This document shows, one piece after another, positions 26,894-39,155 of a stretch of 64,000 bases of DNA (positions are counted from its first letter, which is position 1; each line of letters opens with the position of its first letter). The position numbers and the translations under genes are program-made. The notes under the pieces are model-generated. The model saw only the letters and a program-made list of their open reading frames with translations, was not told where the DNA came from and did no database searches. The DNA is from a bacterium (GTDB taxonomy: Bacteria; Patescibacteriota; Minisyncoccia; Phycocordibacterales; UBA918), in NCBI GenBank assembly GCA_043728975.1, contig JAYTMA010000167.1, positions 4,939 through 68,938 on the forward strand, written 5' to 3'.

Positions 26894-28819
26894 GTGTTAA
26901 TGTCCAATGACTCTGCTGCTAAAATTCCTGCTACACCATGGGGCCCACTCGGCTACGTTACTTTCAAAAGAACATACTCACGGCGAATAAAAGAAGACGA
27001 TGCTAATTCGGCTACTGAAGAATTCCTACAATCTATCGAGCGTGTACTTAAGGCTTGCGATAAACAGCTTAAGTGCGGATTCACTCCAGAAGAAGAAATT
27101 GAAGTTCGTGACATGATGCTTGGGCTTGAAGGTATTGTTGCAGGGAGATTTCTTTGGCAACTCGGAACTAAGACTGTTGATAGACTTGGATTACCTTCGC
27201 TTCAGAATTGTGCTGTAACGCTTGTAAACGAGCCTGTACGCCCTTTTACATGGGCTATGGACATGTTGATGCTTGGCTGTGGCGTAGGGTTTAACATCCA
27301 AAGAGAGCACGTTTATGAGTTACCTAAACCTAAGCGAGTTAAGGTTACAAGACTTGACACAAAAGACGCTGATTATATTGTTCCAGATTCAAGATCCGGT
27401 TGGGTTGAACTTCTTCAGAAAACTCTTGAGGCAATTTTCATTACTGGTAAAGGCTTCACTTACTCAACGATTTGCATTCGCAATAAAGGCACTCTCATTA
27501 AAGGCTTTGGTGGAGTAGCTGCTGGGCCAGAGGAACTATGCTGGGGCATTAACGAAATTCATAAAGTGCTTACTGCTAGATCGGGGAAGAAAGTTCGTCC
27601 CATTGATTGTTTAGATGTCATGAACATCATTGGCTTCATAGTAGTTTCTGGCAACGTTCGTAGAAGTGCGCAACTTGCAATTGGAGACTCTGATGATCTT
27701 CAGTTTCTAAATGCTAAGCGCTGGGATTTGGGGAACATTCCAAACTGGCGAGCAATGTCCAATAACTCAGTTGTATGCAATGACTTCTCTTTGCTACCAG
27801 AACAATTCTGGCAAGGCTACATGGGGAATGGAGAAGCTTACGGCTTAATCAATCTCAAACTGGCCCAGTCTATTGGTAGGGCTGGCGAAACTCAGTATCC
27901 TGACAAAGGTGTAATCGGTTTCAATCCTTGCGCCGAACAATCTCTTGAAGATAAGGAGACTTGCTGTTTGGCAGAATATTATTTGCCTAACATCAAAACT
28001 GAAGCGCGTCTTCATCAAGTACTCAAGTACATTTACAGAATTGCTAAGCATAGTTTGGCTCTTGACTGTCACCATCCTGAAACAGAAGCTATCGTTCATA
28101 AGAACATGAGAATGGGGATTGGAGTTACAGGCTATCTTCAAGCCTCTGATGAGCAGAGAAGTTGGTTAAGCGCTGCTTATAAAATGCTTAGAGAGTTTGA
28201 CGTTGAGTACTCAGATAAGCATGGTTTCCCGCCTTCAATCAAACTAACAACAGTGAAGCCATCTGGGACATTGAGTTTGTTGGCTGGTGTCACACCTGGA
28301 GCACATCCTGGATTTGCTCAATACCACATTCGCAGAATTCGAATTGCTTCGAATAATCCTTTAGTAGAAACCTGTCGCAAGAATGGCTACGACATTGAGT
28401 ATCAGCGTAACTTTGATGGAACAGATGATCGCAATACAGTAGTTGTATCTTTCCCTTGCAGCTTTCCTGAAGGCACTAAGCTCGCTAAAGACATGACCGC
28501 AATTGACCAACTTGAAACAGTCGTTAGATTGCAGAAAGAATGGTCCGACAATGCAGTGTCTGTAACTATTTACTATCGGCCAGAAGAGCTAGTGCTGATT
28601 AAAGAATGGCTTTTTAAAAACTACAACGAGAATTTGAAGACTGTATCATTCTTGCTCCACTCTGAACATGGCTTTCAACAAGCCCCGTTAGAAGAGATTA
28701 CTAAAGAGCAGTTTGAAGCGTACTCGGCTAGAGTTACTCCGATTTCTAATCTTGCGATTATTGATGGAGTTGAGGATTCTGCTGCTGAGTGTGCGAGTGG
28801 TGTATGTCCCATCAAATAA
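26894..28819 (+). CDS. ribonucleotide reductase, class II (B12-dependent, monomeric NrdJ-like, 641 aa)
   Basis: Active-site GFNPCAEQSL (NPC[GA]E), upstream Cys in LQNCAV, and a C-terminal redox pair ECASGVC. The assignment rests on motifs only. Confidence 0.6.
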   Translation: MLMSNDSAAKIPATPWGPLGYVTFKRTYSRRIKEDDANSATEEFLQSIERVLKACDKQLKCGFTPEEEIEVRDMMLGLEGIVAGRFLWQLGTKTVDRLGLPSLQNCAVTLVNEPVRPFTWAMDMLMLGCGVGFNIQREHVYELPKPKRVKVTRLDTKDADYIVPDSRSGWVELLQKTLEAIFITGKGFTYSTICIRNKGTLIKGFGGVAAGPEELCWGINEIHKVLTARSGKKVRPIDCLDVMNIIGFIVVSGNVRRSAQLAIGDSDDLQFLNAKRWDLGNIPNWRAMSNNSVVCNDFSLLPEQFWQGYMGNGEAYGLINLKLAQSIGRAGETQYPDKGVIGFNPCAEQSLEDKETCCLAEYYLPNIKTEARLHQVLKYIYRIAKHSLALDCHHPETEAIVHKNMRMGIGVTGYLQASDEQRSWLSAAYKMLREFDVEYSDKHGFPPSIKLTTVKPSGTLSLLAGVTPGAHPGFAQYHIRRIRIASNNPLVETCRKNGYDIEYQRNFDGTDDRNTVVVSFPCSFPEGTKLAKDMTAIDQLETVVRLQKEWSDNAVSVTIYYRPEELVLIKEWLFKNYNENLKTVSFLLHSEHGFQQAPLEEITKEQFEAYSARVTPISNLAIIDGVEDSAAECASGVCPIK

Positions 28820-28863
28820 TTAAATGCTCTAAAGGCGTAGACATAATCATCGACGAGGAGGAC

Positions 28864-29292
28864 ATGGAGAAAGTGTCCTCCTTTAGCTGGAACACTCATT
28901 CAGGGTATGCTCGAACTTTTAGTCGTAGGCTTGTTGATGGTGGAAAACTAAAGAGTCAATCAATGCACAGGTTGGTTTTAGACGTTACTGATCCTGATGT
29001 AATTGTGGATCACATCAACGGCAATAGGCTTGATAATAGAAAGTCCAATTTAAGATTTGCAACAGTTGCTCAGAATGCACAGAACAGAAAGAAGGTTTCT
29101 GGCGGCTCAAGTATTTATCTTGGAGTTACTTATCATAAGCGTGATGAGCGCTGGCAAGCTTCTGTAAGACACGATGGTAAACGCTATCATGCAGGAATTC
29201 ACAAGACTGAAGAAGAAGCCGCTAGAGCCTATGATGTAAAAGCAAAAGAACTTCACGGCGAATTCGCACGACTAAATTTCCCAAAGGATTAA
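28864..29292 (+). CDS. HNH endonuclease fused to AP2 DNA-binding domain (142 aa)
   Basis: VDHINGNRLDNRKSNLR (HNH_3), then YLGVTYHKRDERWQASVRHDGKRYHAGIHKTEEEAARAYD (AP2). Start at ATG 28864 with gaggagga RBS. Confidence 0.8.
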   Translation: MEKVSSFSWNTHSGYARTFSRRLVDGGKLKSQSMHRLVLDVTDPDVIVDHINGNRLDNRKSNLRFATVAQNAQNRKKVSGGSSIYLGVTYHKRDERWQASVRHDGKRYHAGIHKTEEEAARAYDVKAKELHGEFARLNFPKD

Positions 29293-29294
29293 CA

Positions 29295-29528
29295 TTGAAC
29301 TCCTTCATCCTGCTCATCGCAGCTCTCTGCTCACAAACTGGGCCAGGCCACGGCGATGATGCTGTGTCCACTGGCTACGTTCGCAAAGTGTCCCAGCTTA
29401 TACGAGAAGATGCTTTCACAGCTCAGAGCGCTTGTACAAAGCGACTATTCAAGGCTTGCACTACTAAGCACTTGGTTACAGGTGCTCCAGTTATTAAAGG
29501 CGCTGAGTGCCTCGTGGAAAATCTGTAA
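29295..29528 (+). CDS. hypothetical protein (77 aa)
   Basis: Track ORF. Weak start context. Confidence 0.3.
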   Translation: MNSFILLIAALCSQTGPGHGDDAVSTGYVRKVSQLIREDAFTAQSACTKRLFKACTTKHLVTGAPVIKGAECLVENL

Positions 29529-29644
29529 CTTACAGTAGCTTGTGCAAATCTTGCATATACTGCTTGTGTTAATATAGTGCAAATGTTATACTAAATTCAG
29601 AAACGGGAACAGGAAGTTCCTTGTACAAGCCACGGAGGGCTTTT

Positions 29645-29815
29645 ATGTCTGATCTTGGAGCATTCTTCGTTACGATCATTATCTTAGCGATTGTAGCAGT
29701 ATTGGCACAGACCTTTATCGCTCCATTTTCTCCTGCTCTGAGCTTAATCGTGTGCTTCTTTACAGGCTTGTTCGTTGGCCCAGTTATCTTCAGCGCTCTT
29801 TTGAAGAAGCGCTAA
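29645..29815 (+). CDS. small two-helix membrane peptide (56 aa)
   Basis: FFVTIIILAIVAVLAQTFIAPF and LSLIVCFFTGLFVGPVIFSALL. cacggaggg RBS. Stop overlaps the start of the CPBP gene (TAATG). Confidence 0.5.
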   Translation: MSDLGAFFVTIIILAIVAVLAQTFIAPFSPALSLIVCFFTGLFVGPVIFSALLKKR

Positions 29816-30318
29816 TGGAACTGCTACACGCTCTTTGGATTGTTGGCGCAATCATTCTGGCAATGACTTTTGTTTTTGATAGAAGTTCGCTCCAGTTTGA
29901 TATGAAGGCTTTCAAATGGTTTTTTAAAGTTATTGTTATAGGTTCGGGCATTTCTTTAGCTCTGAATTTACTGTTGCAGAGGTTTCCCCCACTTCTCCCA
30001 GTAGATGCAACTTCGCTCTTGTTCGTATGGTGGGAGGATCTCGTATTCTCCTACCTTCTAATTTACTGCTCAGAAAAGATTCTGCCACGATGGGCGTTCT
30101 ATATAGTAGCTGTCATTTCATCTGCTGTTTTTGGACTGGGCCATTTGTATCAAGGTTGGCTTGTTGTAGCTCTGCTGAGTTTCTACCCTTACTTCGTTAG
30201 TTATAAATGGGGCAAGAGAGTAGGGTTTGGGACAATCATGGCTTCTCACGTTTGCTATGACTTCATTGTATTTGGAAATCAAAAGCTCATTCATTACTTT
30301 GGTAACTTAATAAACTAA
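29815..30318 (+). CDS. CPBP/Abi-family intramembrane metalloprotease-like protein (167 aa)
   Basis: Multi-pass TM protein. WWEDLVF (degenerate EExxxR), FGLGH (FxxxH) and HVCYD (HxxxD) motifs. Confidence 0.5.
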   Translation: MELLHALWIVGAIILAMTFVFDRSSLQFDMKAFKWFFKVIVIGSGISLALNLLLQRFPPLLPVDATSLLFVWWEDLVFSYLLIYCSEKILPRWAFYIVAVISSAVFGLGHLYQGWLVVALLSFYPYFVSYKWGKRVGFGTIMASHVCYDFIVFGNQKLIHYFGNLIN

Positions 30319-30334
30319 TCGACGATAAGCAGCT

Positions 30335-30362
30335 TTATCATCATTCAGGTAACGGAGTAAGT
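30335..30362 (+). repeat. copy 1 of repeated 5' leader element TTATCATCATTCAGGTAACGGAGTAAGT
   Basis: Direct repeat immediately before an ATG. Three copies in tandem gene leaders. Confidence 0.6.
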
Positions 30363-30455
30363 ATGACAGACAAAGAACTTGAGAAACTTTTAGATGATGC
30401 CATTCAAAACATTGAAGCAGAGTGGATTGAGTATAGCAACGGTAGCAAGTCATAA
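30363..30455 (+). CDS. tiny ORF (30 aa)
   Basis: Follows leader copy 1. Translated by hand. Confidence 0.25.
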   Translation: MTDKELEKLLDDAIQNIEAEWIEYSNGSKS

Positions 30456-30521
30456 AAAGACTGTCAGGATATGCAGCGATTCATACTAAGAGAGCTTTTA
30501 GAAAAAGCACAATAAAGAAAA

Positions 30522-30545
30522 TTATCATCGAATAACGGAGAGAAT
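30522..30545 (+). repeat. copy 2 of leader element TTATCATCGAATAACGGAGAGAAT
   Basis: Directly before ATG 30546. Confidence 0.6.
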
Positions 30546-30734
30546 ATGGAAAAAACAATTGCGGTTGAAATTTATTGTGACGAAGTTGATTCATGGAATT
30601 GTGAGGAGAGAATTTATTGTAACAATTTAGCAGAGGCAAAAGCTTTTATTGAGGGATTTGATAAAGCCAAAGAATACCTCTCGCGCCCTGCTCACAATGT
30701 TTCATACAACGCAGAGTTGGTTAGATCACGATAA
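30546..30734 (+). CDS. hypothetical protein (62 aa, Cys-containing)
   Basis: Track ORF preceded by the repeated leader. Confidence 0.5.
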   Translation: MEKTIAVEIYCDEVDSWNCEERIYCNNLAEAKAFIEGFDKAKEYLSRPAHNVSYNAELVRSR

Positions 30735-30741
30735 GAAAACA

Positions 30742-30766
30742 TTATCATTCAGATAACGGAGTAGAT
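30742..30766 (+). repeat. copy 3 of leader element TTATCATTCAGATAACGGAGTAGAT
   Basis: Directly before ATG 30767. Confidence 0.6.
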
Positions 30767-31030
30767 ATGAATGTCTTAGGATTATTCACAGCATTTACTT
30801 TAGCAGTTTTAATCGCTGCAATATTCACAAACACTGGAACATCATCCTCAGAAGCTTTCGCTAAAGGCGATAGCGTAACTGCGTTTGGAAACAAGGGCAT
30901 TGTTAAGAGCATCTCAAGCAACGGCATGTTCCTCGAAGTAGCATTCGATGGAGCTTCTACAACAGTTGTATTTAACAGCGACGGCAAAATACATAACTGG
31001 AACAAGCGGCCCAGTTTAGAGAAGTGCTAG
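30767..31030 (+). CDS. small secreted/membrane protein (87 aa)
   Basis: N-terminal signal-like LGLFTAFTLAVLIAAIFTNTG. Confidence 0.5.
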   Translation: MNVLGLFTAFTLAVLIAAIFTNTGTSSSEAFAKGDSVTAFGNKGIVKSISSNGMFLEVAFDGASTTVVFNSDGKIHNWNKRPSLEKC

Positions 31031-31143
31031 TGAGGTTACGAACAATCTGGTGCAGGGCCAGCGTTTGGATTGTGTTTGAGTTTATGAACTACAGGAAGGT
31101 CGTGATTATAAACAACCTTCATGTCTACAGCATAAGGAAATAA

Positions 31144-31425: not shown

Positions 31426-31950
31426 ATGTCACGTTCCGGAAATCTCAAAATCACAAACGACCACCTTATCTACGAAATGCTCAAAGATCCTGACATCGAC
31501 GTTAGAGAAGATGGGACAGTTTGGACCCTGACCACTAGAACAGGAAGGAGGAGCGCAAGTAATCAATGGAGATTAGCTGGGACTATTAACAGCCAGGGAT
31601 ACGTGATCATCAAGTACAAACGTAAAAATATAACTTCTCATAGATTAACATTCGCTAAATATGGAAATACTCCATTGGCCCCAGATTTAGTTATTAACCA
31701 CATTGATTCGAATAAATCAAACAACTCAATATCTAACCTAGAACTAGTAACCCAATCTCATAACAACTATCACGCATTCCAGACTGGCAAAAAACCAAAT
31801 TACGGAGCCGCTAAAATCACAAAAGCTATAGCAGATCAAATAAGAATGCTTCGACTTGAAGGGGCTAAATATGAATACCTGTGTAAAGAGTTCAACGTAT
31901 CAAAGGCACAGTTTCGGACATCGTTCATAACCGCACTTGGAAATGATTAG
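31426..31950 (+). CDS. HNH endonuclease (HNH_3, 174 aa)
   Basis: VINHIDSNKSNNSISNLELVTQSHN. Confidence 0.8.
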   Translation: MSRSGNLKITNDHLIYEMLKDPDIDVREDGTVWTLTTRTGRRSASNQWRLAGTINSQGYVIIKYKRKNITSHRLTFAKYGNTPLAPDLVINHIDSNKSNNSISNLELVTQSHNNYHAFQTGKKPNYGAAKITKAIADQIRMLRLEGAKYEYLCKEFNVSKAQFRTSFITALGND

Positions 31951-32138: not shown

Positions 32139-33266
32139 ATGAGCTTTAAATTCAACATCAAAAAGCATGGCGAAGTTTATTATGTACGAATGCGATCTTA
32201 TGCTGAGGCTGATAAATTAGCTCTTGGTAAGCCAGATGCGGAATATGTCGAAAGAATGCTGCCTAAAAAAGAATGGGCCATTCATGGGTTTGACGAGGAC
32301 ATGTCTATTGACCAGGCTAGAAAACATGCCAAAAGTTTAAACTCTCAGACAAAGCTTAAAGACGGCAAAGAAAATCGAGCCAAGATTACTCATGCGAAAG
32401 CCTTAGAGCATAATGACTTGGTTAAGTGTGCTTACTTACCGGAACATATAGTTACAGAGTTTGAGAAGAAACTCGAGAACGACTCTTATTCTGAAGATTT
32501 CAGGACATCAAAAGTTTACTACCACTGGCGAACAGCGATGAGAAAAATTGCAGAGCTGGGAATTGCCCCCGATCAATGGGCAGAGAATAATCGACTAGTG
32601 CTTAAAAAACTTGAAGGTTTAGCGCCTTCAACAATTACAAGAGTTATTCATAATATGAATGCTTATGGAGTGTTCTATTCTAAGCGCATGGGCAAGTTCT
32701 TTGAAAAGGTAGCTAAGCCTAAAGGTAATGAGATTGGTAGAATCAGTGACAAGTACTTAGATAGAACTGGCGGCAACACTAAAGAGGCCACTGACATAAC
32801 GCTTAAGCTTATGACAAAGCTAGCCAACTCTGATGAGCTTACTCAAGAAGAAAAAGACTGGTGCGTAGTATGCTTGGGATTTGGACTTAGGCCTAGCGAA
32901 GTGAAGATGATTAACAACCGCGATGTAAAAACTCTCATCATTGGCAAAAACTCAGTTAAGATTTTCCAAGCTAAGTTAGTGTCACTTCCTCGACCTAAAA
33001 GATTTAAAGAAGTGGCAATCACACACCCGTTTCAAAAAGCTGCTTACACAATAATTAAGTCAGATGTTAATTTGTCTGCTCCATCTGTGTATAAGCTCAA
33101 AAAGATATTGGGCGAAGGATACAAGCAGTACTCTTTCAGAAAGGGCTATGTTGAGATTATGATAAACTTAGGTGAGCCAATTGAGCGAATTTCATTAGAC
33201 TTGGGCCACAGCTCGATTGAGAGAACTTGGAAGAGTTATAGGAAAAGAATCACGCAAGGGAGTTAA
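32139..33266 (+). CDS. int: tyrosine integrase (375 aa)
   Basis: CLGFGLRPSEV (box I Arg) and C-terminal LGHSSIERTWKSYRKR (HxxR...Y). Confidence 0.85.
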   Translation: MSFKFNIKKHGEVYYVRMRSYAEADKLALGKPDAEYVERMLPKKEWAIHGFDEDMSIDQARKHAKSLNSQTKLKDGKENRAKITHAKALEHNDLVKCAYLPEHIVTEFEKKLENDSYSEDFRTSKVYYHWRTAMRKIAELGIAPDQWAENNRLVLKKLEGLAPSTITRVIHNMNAYGVFYSKRMGKFFEKVAKPKGNEIGRISDKYLDRTGGNTKEATDITLKLMTKLANSDELTQEEKDWCVVCLGFGLRPSEVKMINNRDVKTLIIGKNSVKIFQAKLVSLPRPKRFKEVAITHPFQKAAYTIIKSDVNLSAPSVYKLKKILGEGYKQYSFRKGYVEIMINLGEPIERISLDLGHSSIERTWKSYRKRITQGS

Positions 33267-33268
33267 TA

Positions 33269-33430
33269 GTGGATATTGTAAATATTTCTGTAGAACTGGG
33301 CCAATTAAAAGCTCGCATCGAGCTTATGAAAGCAGCTCTTGAACAATTGCTCCAGCATGAAGATCCCAAAGTGCGTAAGATTGCAAAAGCAGCTTTGTTT
33401 CAAGCGGGATTTAGCGAAGACGTTACTTAA
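33269..33430 (+). CDS. small helical protein (53 aa, GTG start), possible recombination directionality factor
   Basis: Translated by hand: VDIVNISVELGQLKARIELMKAALEQLLQHEDPKVRKIAKAALFQAGFSEDVT. Lies directly after the integrase. Confidence 0.2.
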   Translation: MDIVNISVELGQLKARIELMKAALEQLLQHEDPKVRKIAKAALFQAGFSEDVT

Positions 33431-33504
33431 GAGCCTTGTAGAGGGGGGAGTTGTAAACTGTCCAGCAGCCATTGGCTTTGTGAACGTGAATGTATTGGCC
33501 CAGT

Positions 33505-34455
33505 TCATTTCAGCTTCCCGAAAATAAATATACGCTCACGATTCTGGGCAAGTCCGAAGTGCTTTGAGTTTACAAGTTCGAAGTCTACTTCATATCCAAG
33601 CTGGGACAGGCCTTTAAGAATCTCAACTATGGTTTTACCTCCATCATGATTCAACAGGCCCTTTACGTTCTCAGCGAGGAAGTACTTCGGCTTATGCTTC
33701 TGGAGAATATCGAAGCAGTGGTAAATCATTTGACCCCGGCCCTTCTCGTCTTCGAACCCCTGTCTAAGTCCAGCAATACTAAAAGACTGGCACGGGAATC
33801 CGAAAGTCAGGAGATCGAAATCTGGGACGTCAGTACGTTCAATGAACTTAGTTACGTCATTAAAGTTGGGAGTGTTCGGATGGTTGAAGCGAATTACATC
33901 TGAAGCGTACTTATCAAATTCGCATGTCCCAGTTAACTTGAAACGCTCTGGAAGATTTAGCTCAGTTCCGAGTATTCCCGAGAACAAAGACTGAACTCTA
34001 ACCTGTTCATCGCCAGGAATTAGTGACGTAAGTATTGTCGCGGCTACAGGAGAGCTGACTCCGTTACCACATTGTTTGTATCTTTGGGTGTTAGACATGT
34101 TGTAGATTGTCCCATCTTCTTTTCTTCCATACGCTGTATGATTGTCTGGGTAGCCTTGAAGTCTTTCACATTCTACTGGAGTGAGCTTACGAATTCTAAT
34201 CGTACCAGCTTCATCTAGAACCATGCGCTGACCATTACCTGGGGCGGGATTACCTACATTAGTGGTGAGAGTACAGGCAATTTCATCAGTCTTAACATTG
34301 TCATTATAAGCATCGTACACCGCTACGAAATTTTGAGAACTCATGTTTGCTCCTCCATCACCTGTACTTATTGTATTTGCTTCTCCATCCACTTTTCCCC
34401 TAACATCAATATGATTCTCACGAGTGCTTTTAGAATATGCTACTGTAGTTTTCAA
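33505..34455 (-). CDS. DNA (cytosine-5) methyltransferase, circularly permuted catalytic core (316 aa: TRD/motifs IX-X, then I, IV, VI, VIII)
   Basis: ECERLQGYPD, GNGVSSPVA (motif X), LFSGILG (I), FPCQSFS (IV), ENVKGL (VI), QNRERIFIFG (VIII). The protein ends 3 aa after motif VIII. TTG start. The frame stays open upstream to 34506. Confidence 0.8.
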   Translation of the reverse strand: MKTTVAYSKSTRENHIDVRGKVDGEANTISTGDGGANMSSQNFVAVYDAYNDNVKTDEIACTLTTNVGNPAPGNGQRMVLDEAGTIRIRKLTPVECERLQGYPDNHTAYGRKEDGTIYNMSNTQRYKQCGNGVSSPVAATILTSLIPGDEQVRVQSLFSGILGTELNLPERFKLTGTCEFDKYASDVIRFNHPNTPNFNDVTKFIERTDVPDFDLLTFGFPCQSFSIAGLRQGFEDEKGRGQMIYHCFDILQKHKPKYFLAENVKGLLNHDGGKTIVEILKGLSQLGYEVDFELVNSKHFGLAQNRERIFIFGKLK

Positions 34456-34457
34456 TT

Positions 34458-34466
34458 CCCCCCCCC
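34458..34466 (-). repeat. homopolymer tract (G9 on the coding strand)
   Basis: Nine C on the plus strand, at the junction between methyltransferase reading frames. Confidence 0.8.
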
Positions 34467-34668
34467 TTCTAATACGAGCTGACGTCGAGACTTCAGAGTA
34501 GTGTTAGTGCCTTTGGCGTAATTACTATCTAAACAATAGCTAACGTCTTTTCCTAATTTCATTAATCATCCTCATTAATATGGGCGTTCTTATCTGCTTC
34601 AGTTGTTAAAGCAGGAGAAATCCCATTGCTGTCGTAGACTCTGCCTTTTTGCTTGTAGAGACTTTGTC

Positions 34669-34678
34669 GCCCCCCCCC
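34669..34678 (-). repeat. homopolymer tract (about G10 on the coding strand)
   Basis: About 10 C on the plus strand, 30 nt downstream of the stop of the 81-aa methyltransferase fragment. Confidence 0.75.
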
Positions 34679-34704
34679 ATACGCTGGTTCGCCGTAGAGG
34701 AGTT

Positions 34705-34950
34705 TTATATCTTTCCCAGCTTCATGCTCACTAGGCGTTCTTGAAAATTCGCTTCTTTAACAATCCTCTCAACAACCTCATTTCTAAGGTAATACTTCTC
34801 ATCAACCTCTTCTTCGAGGATGTCCTTTAGCTTAGGAGTAGGAAGTTCGTTCGTAAGGGGGATGTTGAATTGGCCTAGTTGTATTTCTGGTAGTTCTTTC
34901 TTGATCAGGGCTTTAAGTCGAGTAATAGCTTTTGATTGTGTTATGCTCAT
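34705..34950 (-). CDS. methyltransferase N-terminal fragment (81 aa, the post-motif-VIII segment of a canonical C5-MTase)
   Basis: FNIPLTNELPTPKLKDILEEEVDEKYYL matches the F-x-F-P ... L-x-DIL ... VDEKYYLS segment that normally follows motif VIII. Ends at TAA before the G10 tract. Confidence 0.5.
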   Translation of the reverse strand: MSITQSKAITRLKALIKKELPEIQLGQFNIPLTNELPTPKLKDILEEEVDEKYYLRNEVVERIVKEANFQERLVSMKLGKI

Positions 34951-35008
34951 TGCACAACATTAACACTTGTACCAATTTCCCAAAAGACCTGTGCAAACCT
35001 TGCGTAGG

Positions 35009-35479
35009 CTAGTAACTTCCCACAATGCGTAATTGCTTCCAGCAGATTGTAGTGTGACCGTGAACTGTATAACCAGCTTCTCCGTATTCTCTCCAGCAAG
35101 TACTTCGATAGTCGTACTGAATGCTTATGTAATCTTTGATCTCTTTCATGAGCTGTGCTCTAGTTGTCCCAATCTTATACTTAACCTCTTTAACCTGGGA
35201 CAGACCAGAGGGAATTGAAACAGTAACTGCACAATAGTCTTCTGTCCGCCACTCTACTTCTAAAACTGGAACAGCGTTTTCGTACTCCCGGCTTATGAGA
35301 GCTTCAGCTTTGCGGAAGGCTTGATGGCAGGATTGCCCAAGCTGTCGGTAGAGAATGCGAGAGCCATTGTACACTCGAACGGATTGTTCGCCAGACAAGA
35401 GCCCTTGCACCCAAGATGGGCCAGGAGAAGCACAGGATGAAATGAACAGTAATAATGGTAGTATGGTTAATCTTTTCAT
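35009..35479 (-). CDS. lipoprotein (156 aa)
   Basis: Signal plus lipobox LLLFISSCAS. Confidence 0.55.
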   Translation of the reverse strand: MKRLTILPLLLFISSCASPGPSWVQGLLSGEQSVRVYNGSRILYRQLGQSCHQAFRKAEALISREYENAVPVLEVEWRTEDYCAVTVSIPSGLSQVKEVKYKIGTTRAQLMKEIKDYISIQYDYRSTCWREYGEAGYTVHGHTTICWKQLRIVGSY

Positions 35480-35550
35480 AAGAGCTATTACGGCAGTGCG
35501 TTATTTAAAGTTTAATGGTAGAATGCCGAAGAGAGTAAAAAAGGAGCTTT

Positions 35551-36189
35551 ATGAAATTCTTGTTACTTTTGGTTCTTGTAAGCTGTGCTTCTGTTCCTAG
35601 ACAGGATAAGAGCTTGGTTAAAGTAGGAATTACCTCAATAAAGGTTGTTGATAGTACCTCTAGAAATGTCTTTGTAAGCACTGGCATGAACGAGGTAGAG
35701 AACGATAACCAGCTCTTCAAAATCTACGCCAGCGTCGTTTATGAAGCTCTCAAGGGGCGAGGATATGTCCCAGTTAGTTCTAAGGATAAAGCTAATTTAA
35801 TCGTATATTTAAGCTATGAGGTTTCAGATCCTGAAAACTACACACATACTCAGAGTGTTCCAGTTTACGGCGGTAATTCCACCTCAACAGTTACAAACCA
35901 ATTTGGGCAACAGATCGGAACGATAAGAACTCAAAACTATGGGCCAACAGGTTATAGGGAAGTTAAAAGCTCTTATTCAATATACTCAAAGAAAATCACT
36001 CTCCACGCCTATGAAGGTGAGCAAATGGTGTGGGCAACTAGCTTAGCTCATCATAGCAGCTCAAGCACTGACTTGTTCAAGCTCTTCCCTTACATGGTGC
36101 AAGCTGGAGCGCCTTATTTTGATAAGCACTTAGACGATGCTCCAATTGTAGAGGTTGTTAAAATGAGAGCCCCAGCTTCAGTTCCATAG
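35551..36189 (+). CDS. lipoprotein (212 aa)
   Basis: Signal plus lipobox LVLVSCAS. gaagagagtaaaaaaggag RBS. Divergent from the upstream lipoprotein. Confidence 0.6.
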   Translation: MKFLLLLVLVSCASVPRQDKSLVKVGITSIKVVDSTSRNVFVSTGMNEVENDNQLFKIYASVVYEALKGRGYVPVSSKDKANLIVYLSYEVSDPENYTHTQSVPVYGGNSTSTVTNQFGQQIGTIRTQNYGPTGYREVKSSYSIYSKKITLHAYEGEQMVWATSLAHHSSSSTDLFKLFPYMVQAGAPYFDKHLDDAPIVEVVKMRAPASVP

Positions 36190-36435
36190 CTTAAGCAATC
36201 TTTGCTCAAGCCTATCTGACCAGTTGCACTTGTGTTAATATAGCTCCAAGAGGGGCTATAAACACTTGCATAAGCTTTCAACACATCTATATTTAGGCTT
36301 TTTCACAGGGTTCGTTTTAACGAGCATCTTCTTCACTTACCTCCTCGTCGAGCACTACACATCTAATCAATTCCTCAAACAAAACAACATATACTTAGAC
36401 GGCGCTTATTACAAGCTCTGTAAAAGGTCATGCAA

Positions 36436-36609
36436 ATGAAATGCCCCACTTTGGTTTACTATATTCCTAATATCGACAGAATCATGTCAGTTAAAGTTGG
36501 CTTGAAATTTACCACGATTACTGGAATTGCTAAAGCAGTTCGAATTCCTACTAATGAATTAGTTGGTTCGCTGGAATTCTTTCAAGCTGTTTTTATAGGA
36601 GTTGTATAA
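36436..36609 (+). CDS. hypothetical small protein (57 aa)
   Basis: Translated by hand. Abuts the next gene. Confidence 0.3.
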   Translation: MKCPTLVYYIPNIDRIMSVKVGLKFTTITGIAKAVRIPTNELVGSLEFFQAVFIGVV

Positions 36610-36792
36610 GTGAAACGATCTGAAGCTATTGCTTTAATCAATAAAGTGATTGAAGAAAAGTACTCGAACTACGGCGGAGAAATCCTGTTCCAATTAGAGA
36701 AAGCTGGAATGTTTCCGCCCCATTTTGATGATCCTTTAGTTCGCGATGCTTACGGTAGATATGAAACAAACTTTGCATGGGAGCAAGAATGA
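36610..36792 (+). CDS. hypothetical protein (60 aa, GTG start)
   Basis: Track ORF. Confidence 0.4.
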   Translation: MKRSEAIALINKVIEEKYSNYGGEILFQLEKAGMFPPHFDDPLVRDAYGRYETNFAWEQE

Positions 36793-37034
36793 AATACGAA
36801 ACTGCGCAATTACTCGGAGCTTTGCTGAAAGAACAGCGCTTTGAAGTGGAAATGAAAGACAAGAACTTGGAGTTTAGCCACGATTTCACTGACGAAGAAA
36901 TTGGTGCAATTGTAGAAGCTGAATACAGTTCAACAATTACTCAGCCGGTTGATGAGCTTTTCAAAGTGATTATTAAAGATATGTTAAAGATGGGCGTTGA
37001 TTACGCCAAGAAAGAAGCAGAAGGGCAGAAATGA
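36777..37034 (+). CDS. hypothetical protein (85 aa)
   Basis: Track ORF overlapping its neighbours. Confidence 0.45.
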   Translation: MGARMKYETAQLLGALLKEQRFEVEMKDKNLEFSHDFTDEEIGAIVEAEYSSTITQPVDELFKVIIKDMLKMGVDYAKKEAEGQK

Positions 37035-37399
37035 AAACCCTCTTCGCCCTTCTTCTCATCTATCCCATTTATGCTCAAGCCTGTCCGAAGAACGTACAGA
37101 CGATCAAAACTGGAGCAACTTCCATTTGCGATGGCTGGCTTGTTTCAGAGCCTAAAATGCAAGAGCTTGCAAAACAAGCTGACGAGCTAGAGCTTTCAAA
37201 GAAGCTTATCCTGGCGCAAGAGCATTTACGAACTCTCGATGTTAAAGAGATCGAGTTCTTTAAGAAGCGCTCTGAAGCGGGGGAGAAAGCATTGGCCCAG
37301 TCTAATGCTCAGAAGGTGCTGATTGGAATCGGTGCATTCGCTCTCGGTGTTGTTGTAACAGGTATTGCGGCCAAAGCTGCGATTGAGGCTACTCGATGA
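37031..37399 (+). CDS. secreted/membrane-anchored coiled-coil protein (122 aa)
   Basis: Signal peptide MKTLFALLLIYPIYAQA. C-terminal TM IGIGAFALGVVVTGIAA. Confidence 0.5.
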   Translation: MKTLFALLLIYPIYAQACPKNVQTIKTGATSICDGWLVSEPKMQELAKQADELELSKKLILAQEHLRTLDVKEIEFFKKRSEAGEKALAQSNAQKVLIGIGAFALGVVVTGIAAKAAIEATR

Positions 37400-37578
37400 G
37401 ATTCAGTCTCGGAGATGAGCTTATTGTAACTGAGACTGACTTGAGCTTTTGCGAAAAGGGTCAAGTGTTTATAGTAGAGCGCATGGATAAGTATCATTAC
37501 GAAGACAGAGATGGAACTATCATCGCATCAGACTATGAAGTTGAGCTTCTTTCAGGAAAGCAGTTTATTCTTAGTTGA
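37396..37578 (+). CDS. small protein with family-like N-terminus but no SPLYQALK tail (60 aa)
   Basis: MRFSLGDELIV. ATGA-coupled. Confidence 0.4.
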   Translation: MRFSLGDELIVTETDLSFCEKGQVFIVERMDKYHYEDRDGTIIASDYEVELLSGKQFILS

Positions 37579-37654
37579 AATTTGAAACATGACCTCACTT
37601 GATATTTAATGCTGGTTCCGACCAAGGAATCAAAACTAAAAACAAGGAGGCCAC

Positions 37655-37876
37655 ATGGCGAAGTTAGTAAACAAGGGGAAAAGAGTCAACAAGAAGGTAA
37701 ATAGGAAAGGAGAGGATGGCCAAACGGTGAAATTTGTTCGACACTCCGCTGGCAGTAAGTTCATCTACGTCGAGAATCAAATTAAACACATCGACAAAAG
37801 AGAGCTTGAAATAGTACAAGAACTTACAGATGTGCTTACGGAAGAAAAAATAAAAGAGCTAAAAAATGCGTCTTAA
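37655..37876 (+). CDS. basic hypothetical protein (73 aa)
   Basis: Strong RBS aacaaggaggccacATG. Confidence 0.55.
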   Translation: MAKLVNKGKRVNKKVNRKGEDGQTVKFVRHSAGSKFIYVENQIKHIDKRELEIVQELTDVLTEEKIKELKNAS

Positions 37877-38090
37877 AAATGAAGAAGCCTGTATTTCAAT
37901 CAACCCAAGCCTTTCTGGCCACATGTTAAAGGTGAAACAAGTTTTCGAAATTAGTAAACTCTATCCTCATCTTGACTTGCTCGACATTAGAGATGCCGTT
38001 TTCAACTTTCCTACTGATGCCCAATCAAACATTGAATCAATCTTTAGAAAGACAGGAAAATTTAAATCAAATAGCTCGTCACTTCAATAA
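37866..38090 (+). CDS. hypothetical protein (74 aa)
   Basis: Track ORF. 11-nt overlap with the upstream gene. Confidence 0.4.
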   Translation: MRLKNEEACISINPSLSGHMLKVKQVFEISKLYPHLDLLDIRDAVFNFPTDAQSNIESIFRKTGKFKSNSSSLQ

Positions 38091-38102
38091 TACGATAGCC
38101 AA

Positions 38103-39155
38103 TCAAATTTCATCATTAAAAAACTTTCTTACCAAAATATGATCCATTAGCAACTGATTACAATCCTTGTCGTGCATCTCTGTTGTCATGCTCAACAGCT
38201 CTGCATGTTGCACTATTGTCTCGGCCAATCGCATTTTTTTAAATTTATCAACCTCGGCATCAGTAAGCCCCTTACACGTAGAAATAATTTTAAGAGTCAG
38301 AAAGTCCTCCTGTAGACCTTTTAGACCTCCAAAAATTATATCGTTATTATCAGGATCAAATCCGTAGCCTAAAATGATGAGCCTCTCTGCATTCTGCAAA
38401 ATTGATCTCAGGACTTTATACTCATCCTTATGCTTCCTATCGATAAAATTAATTCCCTCAGAAGCTAAAATTAAATCATCAAATCCAGGAACTGTATCAT
38501 CTCGAAGAGCATTTAAAACGGCATTTACCCGTTCTAGATTTCCGTACACATGAAAGATAGGAAGATCATTTCTGACAATATGTTTTGCCCTGCTCGCTAA
38601 GTCTCGGTCAATTTCTTGATGTGAATAGTAATTAGTAAAACAATCTTCGAGATGAAGGTCGTAATTAAAGGTTATAAAGCAATCCGGTTCTTCTAAGTAT
38701 CCTGAATAATCAAGCCCAATTCGTTTATTTAAATAGTTTAAGATCCATGGCTTACAATCCACGGAAGGTTCAAAAATTCCGTCGACAGTATTCCCTGCCG
38801 TTCTGGCGCAATTAATTAAAACATAACTGACCAAGAATTTTGCGATATTTAGATAGCGTGGATTTTTTGCGACAAAAGAGTCGATTGACTGGGCACCTGA
38901 TTTCTTTAGCTTCTCAACGAACGATTTTAATTCAATTGAAAACTCACCTAGATGATGTTGCAAATCATCGTCTTTGCATTCATCAATATTTTTCCGGAGC
39001 TGATTGAAGATGTTATCAGTACCATTTTCTAAATTGATCAGATTAATTTTAAGCTGACTACCCGTCGGATAGCCATACGCAAGACTTGAGCCAGCTCCGA
39101 GGAGATAAACATCTTTAAACTTATGATTCTTCCATTTTTCAAGTTTCTCAATCAT
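38103..39155 (-). CDS. SIR2_2-family (Thoeris ThsA / DSR-like) putative NAD+-hydrolase protein (350 aa)
   Basis: N-terminal VYLLGAGSSLAYGYPTGSQL (GAGxS...G.P). CFITFNYDLHLED (TTNYD motif). LPIFHVYGNL (catalytic His). LIILGYGFDPDNNDI (GYSf-D). Lone minus-strand gene with aggaac RBS. Confidence 0.7.
   Translation of the reverse strand: MIEKLEKWKNHKFKDVYLLGAGSSLAYGYPTGSQLKINLINLENGTDNIFNQLRKNIDECKDDDLQHHLGEFSIELKSFVEKLKKSGAQSIDSFVAKNPRYLNIAKFLVSYVLINCARTAGNTVDGIFEPSVDCKPWILNYLNKRIGLDYSGYLEEPDCFITFNYDLHLEDCFTNYYSHQEIDRDLASRAKHIVRNDLPIFHVYGNLERVNAVLNALRDDTVPGFDDLILASEGINFIDRKHKDEYKVLRSILQNAERLIILGYGFDPDNNDIIFGGLKGLQEDFLTLKIISTCKGLTDAEVDKFKKMRLAETIVQHAELLSMTTEMHDKDCNQLLMDHILVRKFFNDEI

Follow-up and report, generated by a model that had tools for sequence, protein, structure and literature searches.

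We identified a two-gene membrane operon at positions 29645-30318 of a 64,000-nucleotide (nt) stretch of DNA (contig JAYTMA010000167.1 of assembly GCA_043728975.1, positions 4,939 to 68,938 of the forward strand; hereafter the window, numbered from its first letter), which is part of an uncultivated tailed phage. The first gene encodes a 56-amino-acid (aa) peptide with two predicted transmembrane (TM) helices. The second, whose start codon overlaps the stop codon of the first, encodes a 167-aa protein that profile comparisons assign to the CPBP/Rce1 superfamily (PF02517) of intramembrane proteases. The molecular identity of this protein is ordinary; the family of small CPBP proteins to which it belongs is uncatalogued. 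We propose, at a probability of about 45%, that the pair constitutes an active accessory membrane protease and its dedicated partner peptide, with translation gated by the host regulator CsrA.

A translationally coupled gene pair

The first-pass annotation of the window, made from its letters without database searches, had described a 56-aa double-TM peptide whose gene ends in the start codon of a 167-aa open reading frame (ORF) with three CPBP-like motifs. Direct reading confirmed the coordinates of both genes and the overlap of their codons, and found the quoted motifs in place in the larger protein, WEDLVF at residues 73-78, FGLGH at 106-110 and HVCYD at 145-149. The pair is made up as follows.

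29645-29815, + strand: peptide gene, with ATG at 29645, the 56-aa ORF MSDLGAFFVTIIILAIVAVLAQTFIAPFSPALSLIVCFFTGLFVGPVIFSALLKKR and the stop codon TAA at 29813-29815; two TM helices
29813-29817, + strand: TAATG stop/start overlap, translational coupling; the ATG at 29815-29817 shares its A with the TAA stop
29815-30318, + strand: gene for the 167-aa minimal CPBP/Rce1-like intramembrane protease; six TM helices (PF02517, hhalign and AlphaFold2 evidence)

Both ORFs are real genes and not chance ORFs, since the pair recurs in eight lineages, both products give confident AlphaFold2 (AF2) models, and the ratio of nonsynonymous to synonymous substitution rates (dN/dS) is low enough to speak for coding function. 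Between the window and its closest distinct relative (locus L009; related loci carry L numbers throughout), the peptide has a dN/dS of 0.37 and the large protein one of 0.20, in a comparison in which synonymous sites are near saturation (dS about 1). In the relatives the two genes are joined by a stop/start overlap, by TAGTG, or by a gap of 0-3 nt. As the start of the enzyme gene, the ATG at 29815 is supported because almost all homologues begin at an aligned 'ME'; on the same ground, a start at the upstream GTG at 29752 finds no support. A strong Shine-Dalgarno sequence (GGAGG, 29634-29638) precedes the peptide start at 29645, and none is found ahead of 29815. Consequently, the second cistron probably relies on translational coupling.

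Assignment of the 167-aa protein to the CPBP/Rce1 superfamily

That the larger protein is a CPBP had been proposed from its motifs, and the proposal held in profile comparisons. The Pfam model PF02517 matched the protein with 25.9 bits (gathering score 22.4; expectation value (E) 1.3e-5) over profile positions 10-93 of 93, and it matched 15 of 16 homologues, the best with E 1.5e-9. Over residues 70-153, hhalign aligned an 83-member family profile with seven ordinary bacterial CPBPs at a probability of 97.7% (E 2e-12), and every motif fell into register. In BLASTP alignments to bacterial CPBPs, EDLVF stands opposite EELVFRG (EELxFRG) and FGLGHLYQGW is identical. These comparisons show the 167-aa protein, at the level of sequence, to be a member of the CPBP/Rce1 superfamily. 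Its three core motifs are listed below.

30031-30039, + strand: motif 1 (EExxxR equivalent), W73-E74-D75; E74 corresponds to the catalytic Glu140 of MmRce1, and there is no Arg
30130-30144, + strand: motif 2 (FxxxH), F106-G-L-G-H110; H110 corresponds to the catalytic His173 of MmRce1
30247-30261, + strand: motif 3 (HxxxN/D), H145-V-C-Y-D149; oxyanion-hole pair by equivalence

In MmRce1, Glu140 together with His173 makes up the catalytic dyad, His227 and Asn231 form the oxyanion hole, Glu141 is an important residue and the floor of the cavity is sealed by Arg145 (PMC12067869). The equivalents of the first five of these residues in the 167-aa protein are E74, H110, H145, D149 and D75, respectively; Arg145 has no equivalent. 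Across the alignment of 83 family sequences, in which mean column identity is about 32%, V71, E74, D75, H110 and D149 are invariant, and W73, F106, Y112, G137, T140 and H145 are retained in at least 90% of the sequences. Both histidines of the quoted motifs are thus conserved among the relatives. The glutamate motif had been described as degenerate, and it is so throughout the family: in all 83 sequences the first Glu is kept, the second position is an Asp (ED for EE) and the Arg is absent. That the catalytic residues are so strictly kept speaks for an enzyme that is active.

The AF2 model of the protein is an all-helical membrane bundle (predicted local distance difference test score, pLDDT, 89.5; predicted template modelling score, pTM, 0.81) with helices at residues 2-21, 30-54, 65-89, 92-108, 115-136 (kinked) and 138-166. 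By the positive-inside rule its topology would be N-out/C-out, with basic loops at 22-36, 86-93 and 129-138. Among the six best matches in a fold search of BFVD, four are named CAAX protease, three of them from giant viruses at probabilities of 0.96-0.99 and the fourth at 0.28; Bacillus phage G gp60 (0.75) and a giant-virus protein without a name (0.97) make up the rest. PADLOC models gave no match at E<=1 to the peptide or to the 167-aa protein, and the NCBIfam library gave no meaningful match. A single-sequence search of the PDB also aligned residues 90-148 (30082-30258) weakly with helices II-III of photosystem II CP43 at E 0.03, the two sharing SSAVxGxG..Y, P.F.Y.W and TI..H.C. This match vanishes with the family profile and probably reflects TM composition.

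A compact subfamily and its genomic contexts

A word-indexed search returned 16 relatives of the 167-aa protein, all metagenomic, and an exhaustive profile search of 1.84 billion representatives returned 230 at E<=1e-3 (clusters at 50% identity), most of them 155-190 aa long. None of the 83 aligned family members had a PHROG match, tblastn with three members found no match in 50,697 deposited phage records, and a scan of IMG/VR returned no relative of the enzyme. Among 185,579 GTDB species genomes (one per species) there was a single near full-length relative, on a 15-kb contig of a metagenome-assembled genome, where it adjoins a baseplate-hub-like gene. The other GTDB matches are partial; seven of them were translated, and each is an ordinary bacterial CPBP whose match lies around motifs 1-2. 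As judged from these searches, the proteins form a compact 'mini' subfamily of about 230 clusters with six TM helices, apparently restricted to phages. This subfamily of Arg-less, minimal CPBPs lies outside PHROGs and the deposited phage genomes and had, on that basis, not been catalogued before.

Among the distant members of the family that have readable flanks, most lie in surroundings of two kinds. In six loci (L005, L008, L012, L049, L051 and L057; for example L012 3895-5501, L005 2974-4510 and L008 1687-3252), the enzyme gene begins 1-10 nt after a gene, or the truncated 3' end of a gene, for a 341-352-aa protein. Two of these proteins had weak PHROG matches (E 2e-3 to 7e-6) to baseplate hub, tail lysozyme and baseplate assembly families, and the hub/spike-like proteins share a conserved, hydrophobic and Gly-rich C-terminus (...LGxGNLGAPVISQA...). 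In 11 other loci (L046-L048, L050, L054-L056, L058-L060 and L062), the enzyme follows Gly-rich or hydrophobic proteins that are 45-235 aa long as read, several being cut by contig ends, and that end, for example, in GTGTGTIS or PIPxPxAE. Six of these 11 loci have a conserved 86-91-aa protein (MPKKK...LRxH) just downstream, and in L046 (3377-7196) the enzyme gene precedes a baseplate protein. No homologue of either kind of upstream protein was found within the window. These contexts weaken models in which the peptide defines the function of the enzyme, and they raise an alternative linked to the baseplate, which is weighed below.

The two-helix peptide

Peptide homologues of 54-61 aa abut the enzyme gene in the window and in L003, L006, L007, L009, L010, L099 and L100, that is, in eight of the nine lineages of a crown clade; the enzymes of these eight are 53-72% identical. 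Identity between the peptides of different lineages is 24-34%, and 71% to the closest relative, L009. Four features are conserved: the peptide starts with MS(D/E), its turn contains Pro, helix 2 has G41-x-F43-x-G-P, and the tail is basic. AF2 models the peptide as a helical hairpin (residues 3-24 and 30-54; pLDDT 87), for which the positive-inside rule predicts an N-in/C-in topology. The peptide contains no double-glycine leader, signal peptide or cleavable pro-region, and its MS(D/E) start runs straight into a TM helix, which argues for a resident two-TM protein and not for a secreted peptide. Pfam matches to BaxI and DUF983 fell below the cut-off and were taken as hydrophobic noise; PHROG matches were insignificant and did not annotate a function.

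A profile search of 5.8 billion proteins returned only five matches to the peptide, all from the same kind of locus, and the peptide is never seen without the enzyme. The enzyme does occur without the peptide. In L004, whose enzyme is 56% identical, the leader is the same but runs straight into the enzyme gene, the peptide gene being missing; the sister lineage L098 has no peptide before its CPBP gene; and no comparable peptide was found in the more distant family members examined. This distribution marks the peptide as a recent, clade-specific add-on, the neighbor-joining tree being compatible both with loss of the peptide in L004 and with its never having been present there. We also considered the peptide as a relic of the 3' end of an upstream baseplate gene and rejected this, the hhalign probability being 0.06% with only a four-residue match (GPVI/APVI). 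A search for natural peptide-enzyme fusions was likewise negative, as the longer family members P0059, P0078 and P0089 carry unrelated N-terminal extensions.

Candidate promoter and structured leader

Upstream of the peptide gene lie a candidate promoter and a leader of about 45 nt with two predicted hairpins; the conserved leader recurs in L003, L004, L006, L007, L009, L010, L099 and L100.

29564-29592, + strand: sigma-70-like promoter; -35 TTGTGT at 29564-29569, 17-nt spacer with TGn, -10 TATACT at 29587-29592
29605-29621, + strand: leader hairpin 1; stem 29605-29610/29616-29621, loop AGGAA; CAGGAAG at 29610-29616
29627-29642, + strand: leader hairpin 2; AAGCC-ACGGAG-GGCTT, containing the Shine-Dalgarno sequence GGAGG (29634-29638)

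The -10 block TGCAnTATACTAA could be aligned and is conserved in related loci; by eye, a TTG-type -35 at a spacing of 17 nt could be made out only in the window, L003 and L006. A simple promoter scanner did not list the promoter at 29564-29592, so that the call is drawn from conservation. The full 16-mer GCCACGGAGGGCTTTT (29629-29644) occurs once in the window; as the -10-like pattern is not enriched either, we rejected the idea of a generic phage repeat of promoter and ribosome-binding site (RBS).

The two hairpins were predicted by RNAalifold on the aligned loci. Hairpin 1 shows compensatory changes at 4 of 7 pairs with 97.6% of cells paired, and its covariation exceeds that of all 500 shuffles and of all slid controls. 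Taken together with the pair that closes it, the hairpin 1 loop has the sequence CAGGA(A/U/C)G in every aligned locus except L009 (CAAGAUG). The repeat consensus of CsrB is CAGGA(U/A/C)G (PMC7652899), which the CAGGAAG of hairpin 1 fits. The sequence CACGGAGG of hairpin 2 agrees with the RsmE/CsrA site CANGGANG. Although synonymous sites are near saturation, all seven aligned loci have the same block GCCACGGAGGGCTT (29629-29642), among them the peptide-less L004, where the next two T's differ; L100 differs at an N position only (CAUGGAGG). The leader of L098 is different: a hairpin GTGGAA-ATGC-TTCCAC is followed by CAAGGAUG, which covers the Shine-Dalgarno sequence, and the CPBP start comes next, at position 453 of a 1069-nt contig. 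This contig also keeps an upstream homologue of a 77-aa ORF of the window (29295-29528). The two GGA motifs of the leader are 22 nt apart, which falls within the range of 10-63 nt for bridging, and they match the dual-site layout described for the repression of glgC by CsrA (PMC7652899).

No Rfam family matched the leader. A guanidine-II (mini-ykkC) riboswitch was considered, since the leader holds two ACGG motifs, and was rejected: the first motif is not conserved, the loops are 5-6 nt long and the Rfam match is lacking. A scan of IMG/VR with the leader pattern gave one match (L011), on an unrelated high-GC contig without similar genes, which we judged to be chance.

Phage setting and neighbouring genes

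Phage genes of the window include a family A DNA polymerase, which is 48% identical to that of Flavobacterium phage immuto, a DNA polymerase exonuclease subunit, a class II ribonucleotide reductase (RNR), HNH/AP2 endonucleases, a head maturation protease and an internal virion protein. The same sequence is present on ~91-kb contigs in several assemblies, and a near-identity DNA search with positions 29000-31000 found no match among deposited phages. The operon follows shortly after the RNR gene and an HNH endonuclease gene, with an accessory block further downstream, and its position is the border between the replication module and the accessory region; the structural genes, at 45.8-64 kb, are on the opposite strand. 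A Shine-Dalgarno core (GGAG/GAGG/AGGA, 4-20 nt upstream of the start) was found for 35 of 58 sampled genes (60%), compared with 11% of random positions. This usage and the -35/-10 promoter argue against a Bacteroidota host, despite the match of the polymerase to a Flavobacterium phage.

Three small ORFs follow the enzyme gene in the region 30351-31030, each preceded by AACGGAG.

30363-30455, + strand: 30-aa ORF
30546-30734, + strand: 62-aa ORF
30767-31030, + strand: 87-aa ORF

The AACGGAG copies lie at 30351-30357, 30534-30540 and 30755-30761, within ~400 bp, with the start codons 5-6 nt downstream. Window-wide, the heptamer is not enriched (7 found, 4.9 expected); its ACGGAG core is common to these three RBSs and that of the peptide. 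The simple terminator scanner listed no terminator-like site at 30318-30995, and on the + strand after the leader it listed only 30029-30055, inside the CPBP gene, and 31047-31061. The small ORFs are possibly co-transcribed with the operon, their membership of the unit being uncertain.

The Pfam and PHROGs scan of neighbours covered 11 ORFs, eight between 29.3 and 37.4 kb and three further out, and hence only part of the phage. Among these 11 there was no match to an exporter, a C39 peptidase or a regulatory system of the bacteriocin type, and none to an endolysin or spanin.

HNH homing-endonuclease-like genes, one of them with an AP2 domain, flank the operon at 28789-29292 and 31426-31950. 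The first begins within the end of the RNR gene. An HNH gene stands between RNR and the operon in the window and L099, and not in L003 or L006; this variation between relatives suggests mobile insertions at the RNR-operon junction. The accessory block (32139-39155) holds an integrase-like gene (phrog_1, E 3e-5; no Pfam match), a C5 cytosine methylase gene and a SIR2_2-domain protein gene, both on the minus strand, and a gene for a DUF4136-like protein (below the Pfam cut-off). The integrase-like gene is unusual in a phage of ~91 kb with its own polymerase and RNR.

Proposed explanation and alternatives

In the explanation that we favour, the 167-aa protein would be a glutamate-type intramembrane hydrolase acting in the membrane of the infected (or lysogenic) cell. 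Since most family members have no peptide, its core job would be independent of the peptide. The peptide would be synthesised in parallel with the enzyme as its dedicated partner; most likely it would be a substrate embedded in the membrane or a regulator that sits in the cleft. Apart from the features of the N-terminus, turn and tail, its only conserved residues are the helix-breaking G-x-F-x-G-P of helix 2, which suggests such a part; intramembrane proteases require helix-breaking motifs in their substrates. Host CsrA/Rsm would gate translation through one site in the loop of hairpin 1 and a second over the Shine-Dalgarno sequence, as in glgC and hcnA. As to the role, our best guess is an accessory function at the host membrane, such as excluding or giving immunity to membrane attack, or removing a host membrane protein. 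Bacteriocin production is probably not the role.

Several points weigh against this explanation. No activity, substrate or phenotype is known for any member of the mini-CPBP family. With the motif-1 Arg missing and an Asp in place of the second Glu, the chemistry or the access route may differ from that of Rce1, and there are non-protease CPBP folds (LnsB, SpdC and APH-1). A Foldseek search and sequence searches of the PDB gave no match for the 167-aa protein, so that the support from fold comes from matches with weak E-values to predicted viral structures. A physical interaction of peptide and enzyme would follow from gene order only, and 1:1 coupled pairs are more typical of the subunits of a complex than of an enzyme and its substrate. 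By the positive-inside rule, moreover, the GxFxGP of the peptide lies toward the cytoplasmic leaflet and H110 of the enzyme at the periplasmic face, with no obvious fit between them. As to the leader, it looks like a dual CsrA/Rsm binding site by motif resemblance; the site is a predicted one, and no CsrA gene was found within the window. Since ACGGAG is also the RBS of three neighbouring ORFs, it may simply be a preferred Shine-Dalgarno sequence.

The first-pass annotation had read the pair as a toxin/immunity or bacteriocin-like cassette, with the peptide as a membrane-damaging toxin or bacteriocin precursor and the CPBP protein as an Abi-type immunity or processing factor, comparable to PlnI and SkkI beside two-peptide bacteriocins. 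A CPBP/Abi gene next to a small peptide gene is indeed a known bacteriocin-immunity arrangement, and an immunity role of CPBP/Abi proteins beside small peptides was reportedly described by Kjos et al. in 2010. Moreover, the peptide combines strong hydrophobicity with a basic tail, toxin-antitoxin pairs typically show tight translational coupling, and the occurrence of the enzyme without the peptide, and never the reverse, is the asymmetry expected of a toxin and its antidote. The reading nevertheless fared badly. The peptide has the character of a resident two-TM protein, with no double-glycine leader, signal peptide or pro-region; the neighbours scanned include no exporter or C39 peptidase; and PADLOC found nothing. 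The enzyme family is, in addition, older and far wider than the peptide, most of its distant members lying in the baseplate-type or Gly-rich contexts, so that immunity to the peptide cannot be its ancestral role. As the peptide is restricted to one clade, being absent from L004, L098 and the distant members, and the enzyme stands alone elsewhere, the pair is not a conserved toxin/immunity unit. We consider a cassette of this kind distinctly unlikely, though the enzyme itself may serve in superinfection exclusion, which the first-pass annotation had also suggested, or in immunity. A role linked to the baseplate or tail spike is unlikely as well, if less so. Here the enzyme, at the membrane, would trim the hub/spike-like protein encoded upstream, or else it would shield the infected cell against the spike with which superinfecting virions pierce membrane and wall, as T4 Sp does against gp5, and the peptide would be a replacement partner in the clade of the window. 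Such a role would suit the six loci with the enzyme 1-10 nt behind a 341-352-aa protein, two of these proteins having baseplate matches, as well as the 11 loci behind Gly-rich or hydrophobic proteins, the L046 enzyme gene in front of a baseplate protein, and the precedent of Rce1, which trims C-termini. It would not explain why the gene of the window clade sits in the replication/accessory region under its own host-type promoter, away from the structural genes and without a homologue of those upstream proteins; the peptide is also unrelated to the baseplate C-termini (hhalign 0.06%), and the matches behind the baseplate assignments are weak ones (E 2e-3 to 7e-6).

The degenerate motif 1, with ED for EE and no Arg, could also be taken as the mark of a non-catalytic CPBP fold that works in the membrane as a scaffold, a chaperone or a partner in signalling, the kind of role put forward for SpdC, LnsB and APH-1, with the peptide as a subunit that adds two helices. 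Documented non-protease members of the superfamily exist, the stop/start coupling suggests equimolar subunits, and six helices plus two make eight, the helix count of MmRce1 (PMC12067869). Non-catalytic CPBPs, however, have lost their catalytic residues, whereas the 83 sequences of this family all have the Glu/His dyad and the Asp, and no fewer than 90% of them have the second His. Such retention across divergent sequences is hard to explain without chemistry at the site. Furthermore, peptide-less members are equal in length to peptide-bearing ones, and the peptide is thus not a split-off piece of the fold. We regard a non-catalytic role as improbable. Least probable of all is a lysis-timing module in which the peptide would be a class II holin or pinholin-like protein controlled by CPBP cleavage. 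Class II holins and pinholins are small, with two TM helices, an N-in/C-in topology and a charged C-terminal tail, and the peptide fits in size, helix number, topology inferred from the positive-inside rule and basic C-terminal tail; CsrA, too, is said to repress the small lysis gene cel of ColE7. However, no endolysin or spanin was matched among the neighbours scanned, the promoter is of the host type and the region early or accessory rather than late, the peptide has no dual-start motif and only insignificant PHROG matches, and the close relative L004 has no peptide, which would be unlikely for a holin.

A more far-reaching conjecture, which we put forward as a long shot, would join several of these observations. 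Mini-CPBPs would be phage-specific intramembrane proteases that cleave the protein encoded immediately upstream, which in many relatives with readable flanks is hub/spike-like with a hydrophobic, Gly-rich C-terminus, and would so add a membrane step to the maturation of the tail tip or to what becomes of the spike after injection. In the clade of the window, the enzyme would have moved to a CsrA-gated early operon with a two-TM mini-substrate, whose cleavage would release a signal or effector that reports the physiological state of the host.

CPBP/Rce1-type proteases are abundant in bacteria; to our knowledge, almost none has a known substrate, and we know of no study of virus-encoded ones. 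The operon described here offers a very small (167 aa), confidently modelled CPBP with its catalytic residues intact, together with a candidate cognate peptide in the same transcript. A simple two-gene reconstitution is therefore feasible, which makes the locus unusually tractable for finding a CPBP substrate. It also represents a family of ~230 clusters that is outside the current phage catalogues (PHROGs and deposited phage genomes). If the leader is truly a CsrA target, the phage would tie an accessory membrane function to the global post-transcriptional state of its host. If none of these explanations holds, what stands is a correctly identified, functionally anonymous accessory gene pair.

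Comparison with known systems

The closest relationship is to Rce1/CPBP proteins (PF02517; MmRce1, PDB 4CAD), with which the window enzyme shares the three core motifs in register, the Glu/His dyad, the His/Asp(Asn) pair and a polytopic helical architecture. It differs from them in having six helices instead of eight and a length of 167 aa, in the Asp that replaces the second Glu, in the subfamily-wide lack of the motif-1 Arg, and in that phage-like metagenomic contigs are the only known source of its subfamily. Viral CAAX proteases (Bacillus phage G gp60 and those of Orpheovirus, Fadolivirus and Hokovirus) are the best fold matches in the viral library (0.75-0.99) and are likewise virus-encoded CPBP folds. 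Their identity to the window enzyme is, however, ~15% with weak E-values, they are absent from the family profile search, and no partner peptide has been described for them.

In gene order, the pair resembles the Abi-type immunity proteins (PlnI, PlnLR and SkkI, with the SilX and SagE-like CAAX proteases), in whose operons the CPBP gene comes immediately after a gene for a small hydrophobic peptide. Unlike in those systems, the peptide of the window is a leaderless, resident two-TM protein with no exporter among the neighbours scanned, the genes belong to a phage and not to a bacteriocin locus of a Firmicute, and the enzyme family is older than the peptide. T4 Sp and Imm are small phage inner-membrane proteins that are expressed apart from the virion genes and protect the infected cell, Sp targeting the baseplate-hub lysozyme gp5. 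The likeness here is that many relatives of the enzyme adjoin a hub-like gene; there is no relation in sequence or fold.

The leader resembles the CsrA/RsmE leaders of the glgC/hcnA type in carrying one GGA in a hairpin loop (CAGGAAG) and a second over the Shine-Dalgarno sequence, 22 nt apart. It differs in the loop of hairpin 1, which has five nt and not six, and in that ACGGAG is also the RBS of neighbouring ORFs, and the site is a putative one. For the peptide, BofA may serve as a working analogy. BofA is a small two-TM protein that occupies and inhibits the intramembrane protease SpoIVFB, and SpoVM and FtsH may be compared. SpoIVFB is an S2P metalloprotease, and the genes there are not translationally coupled; by this analogy, the peptide of the window would be a small hairpin regulator or pseudo-substrate of an intramembrane protease.

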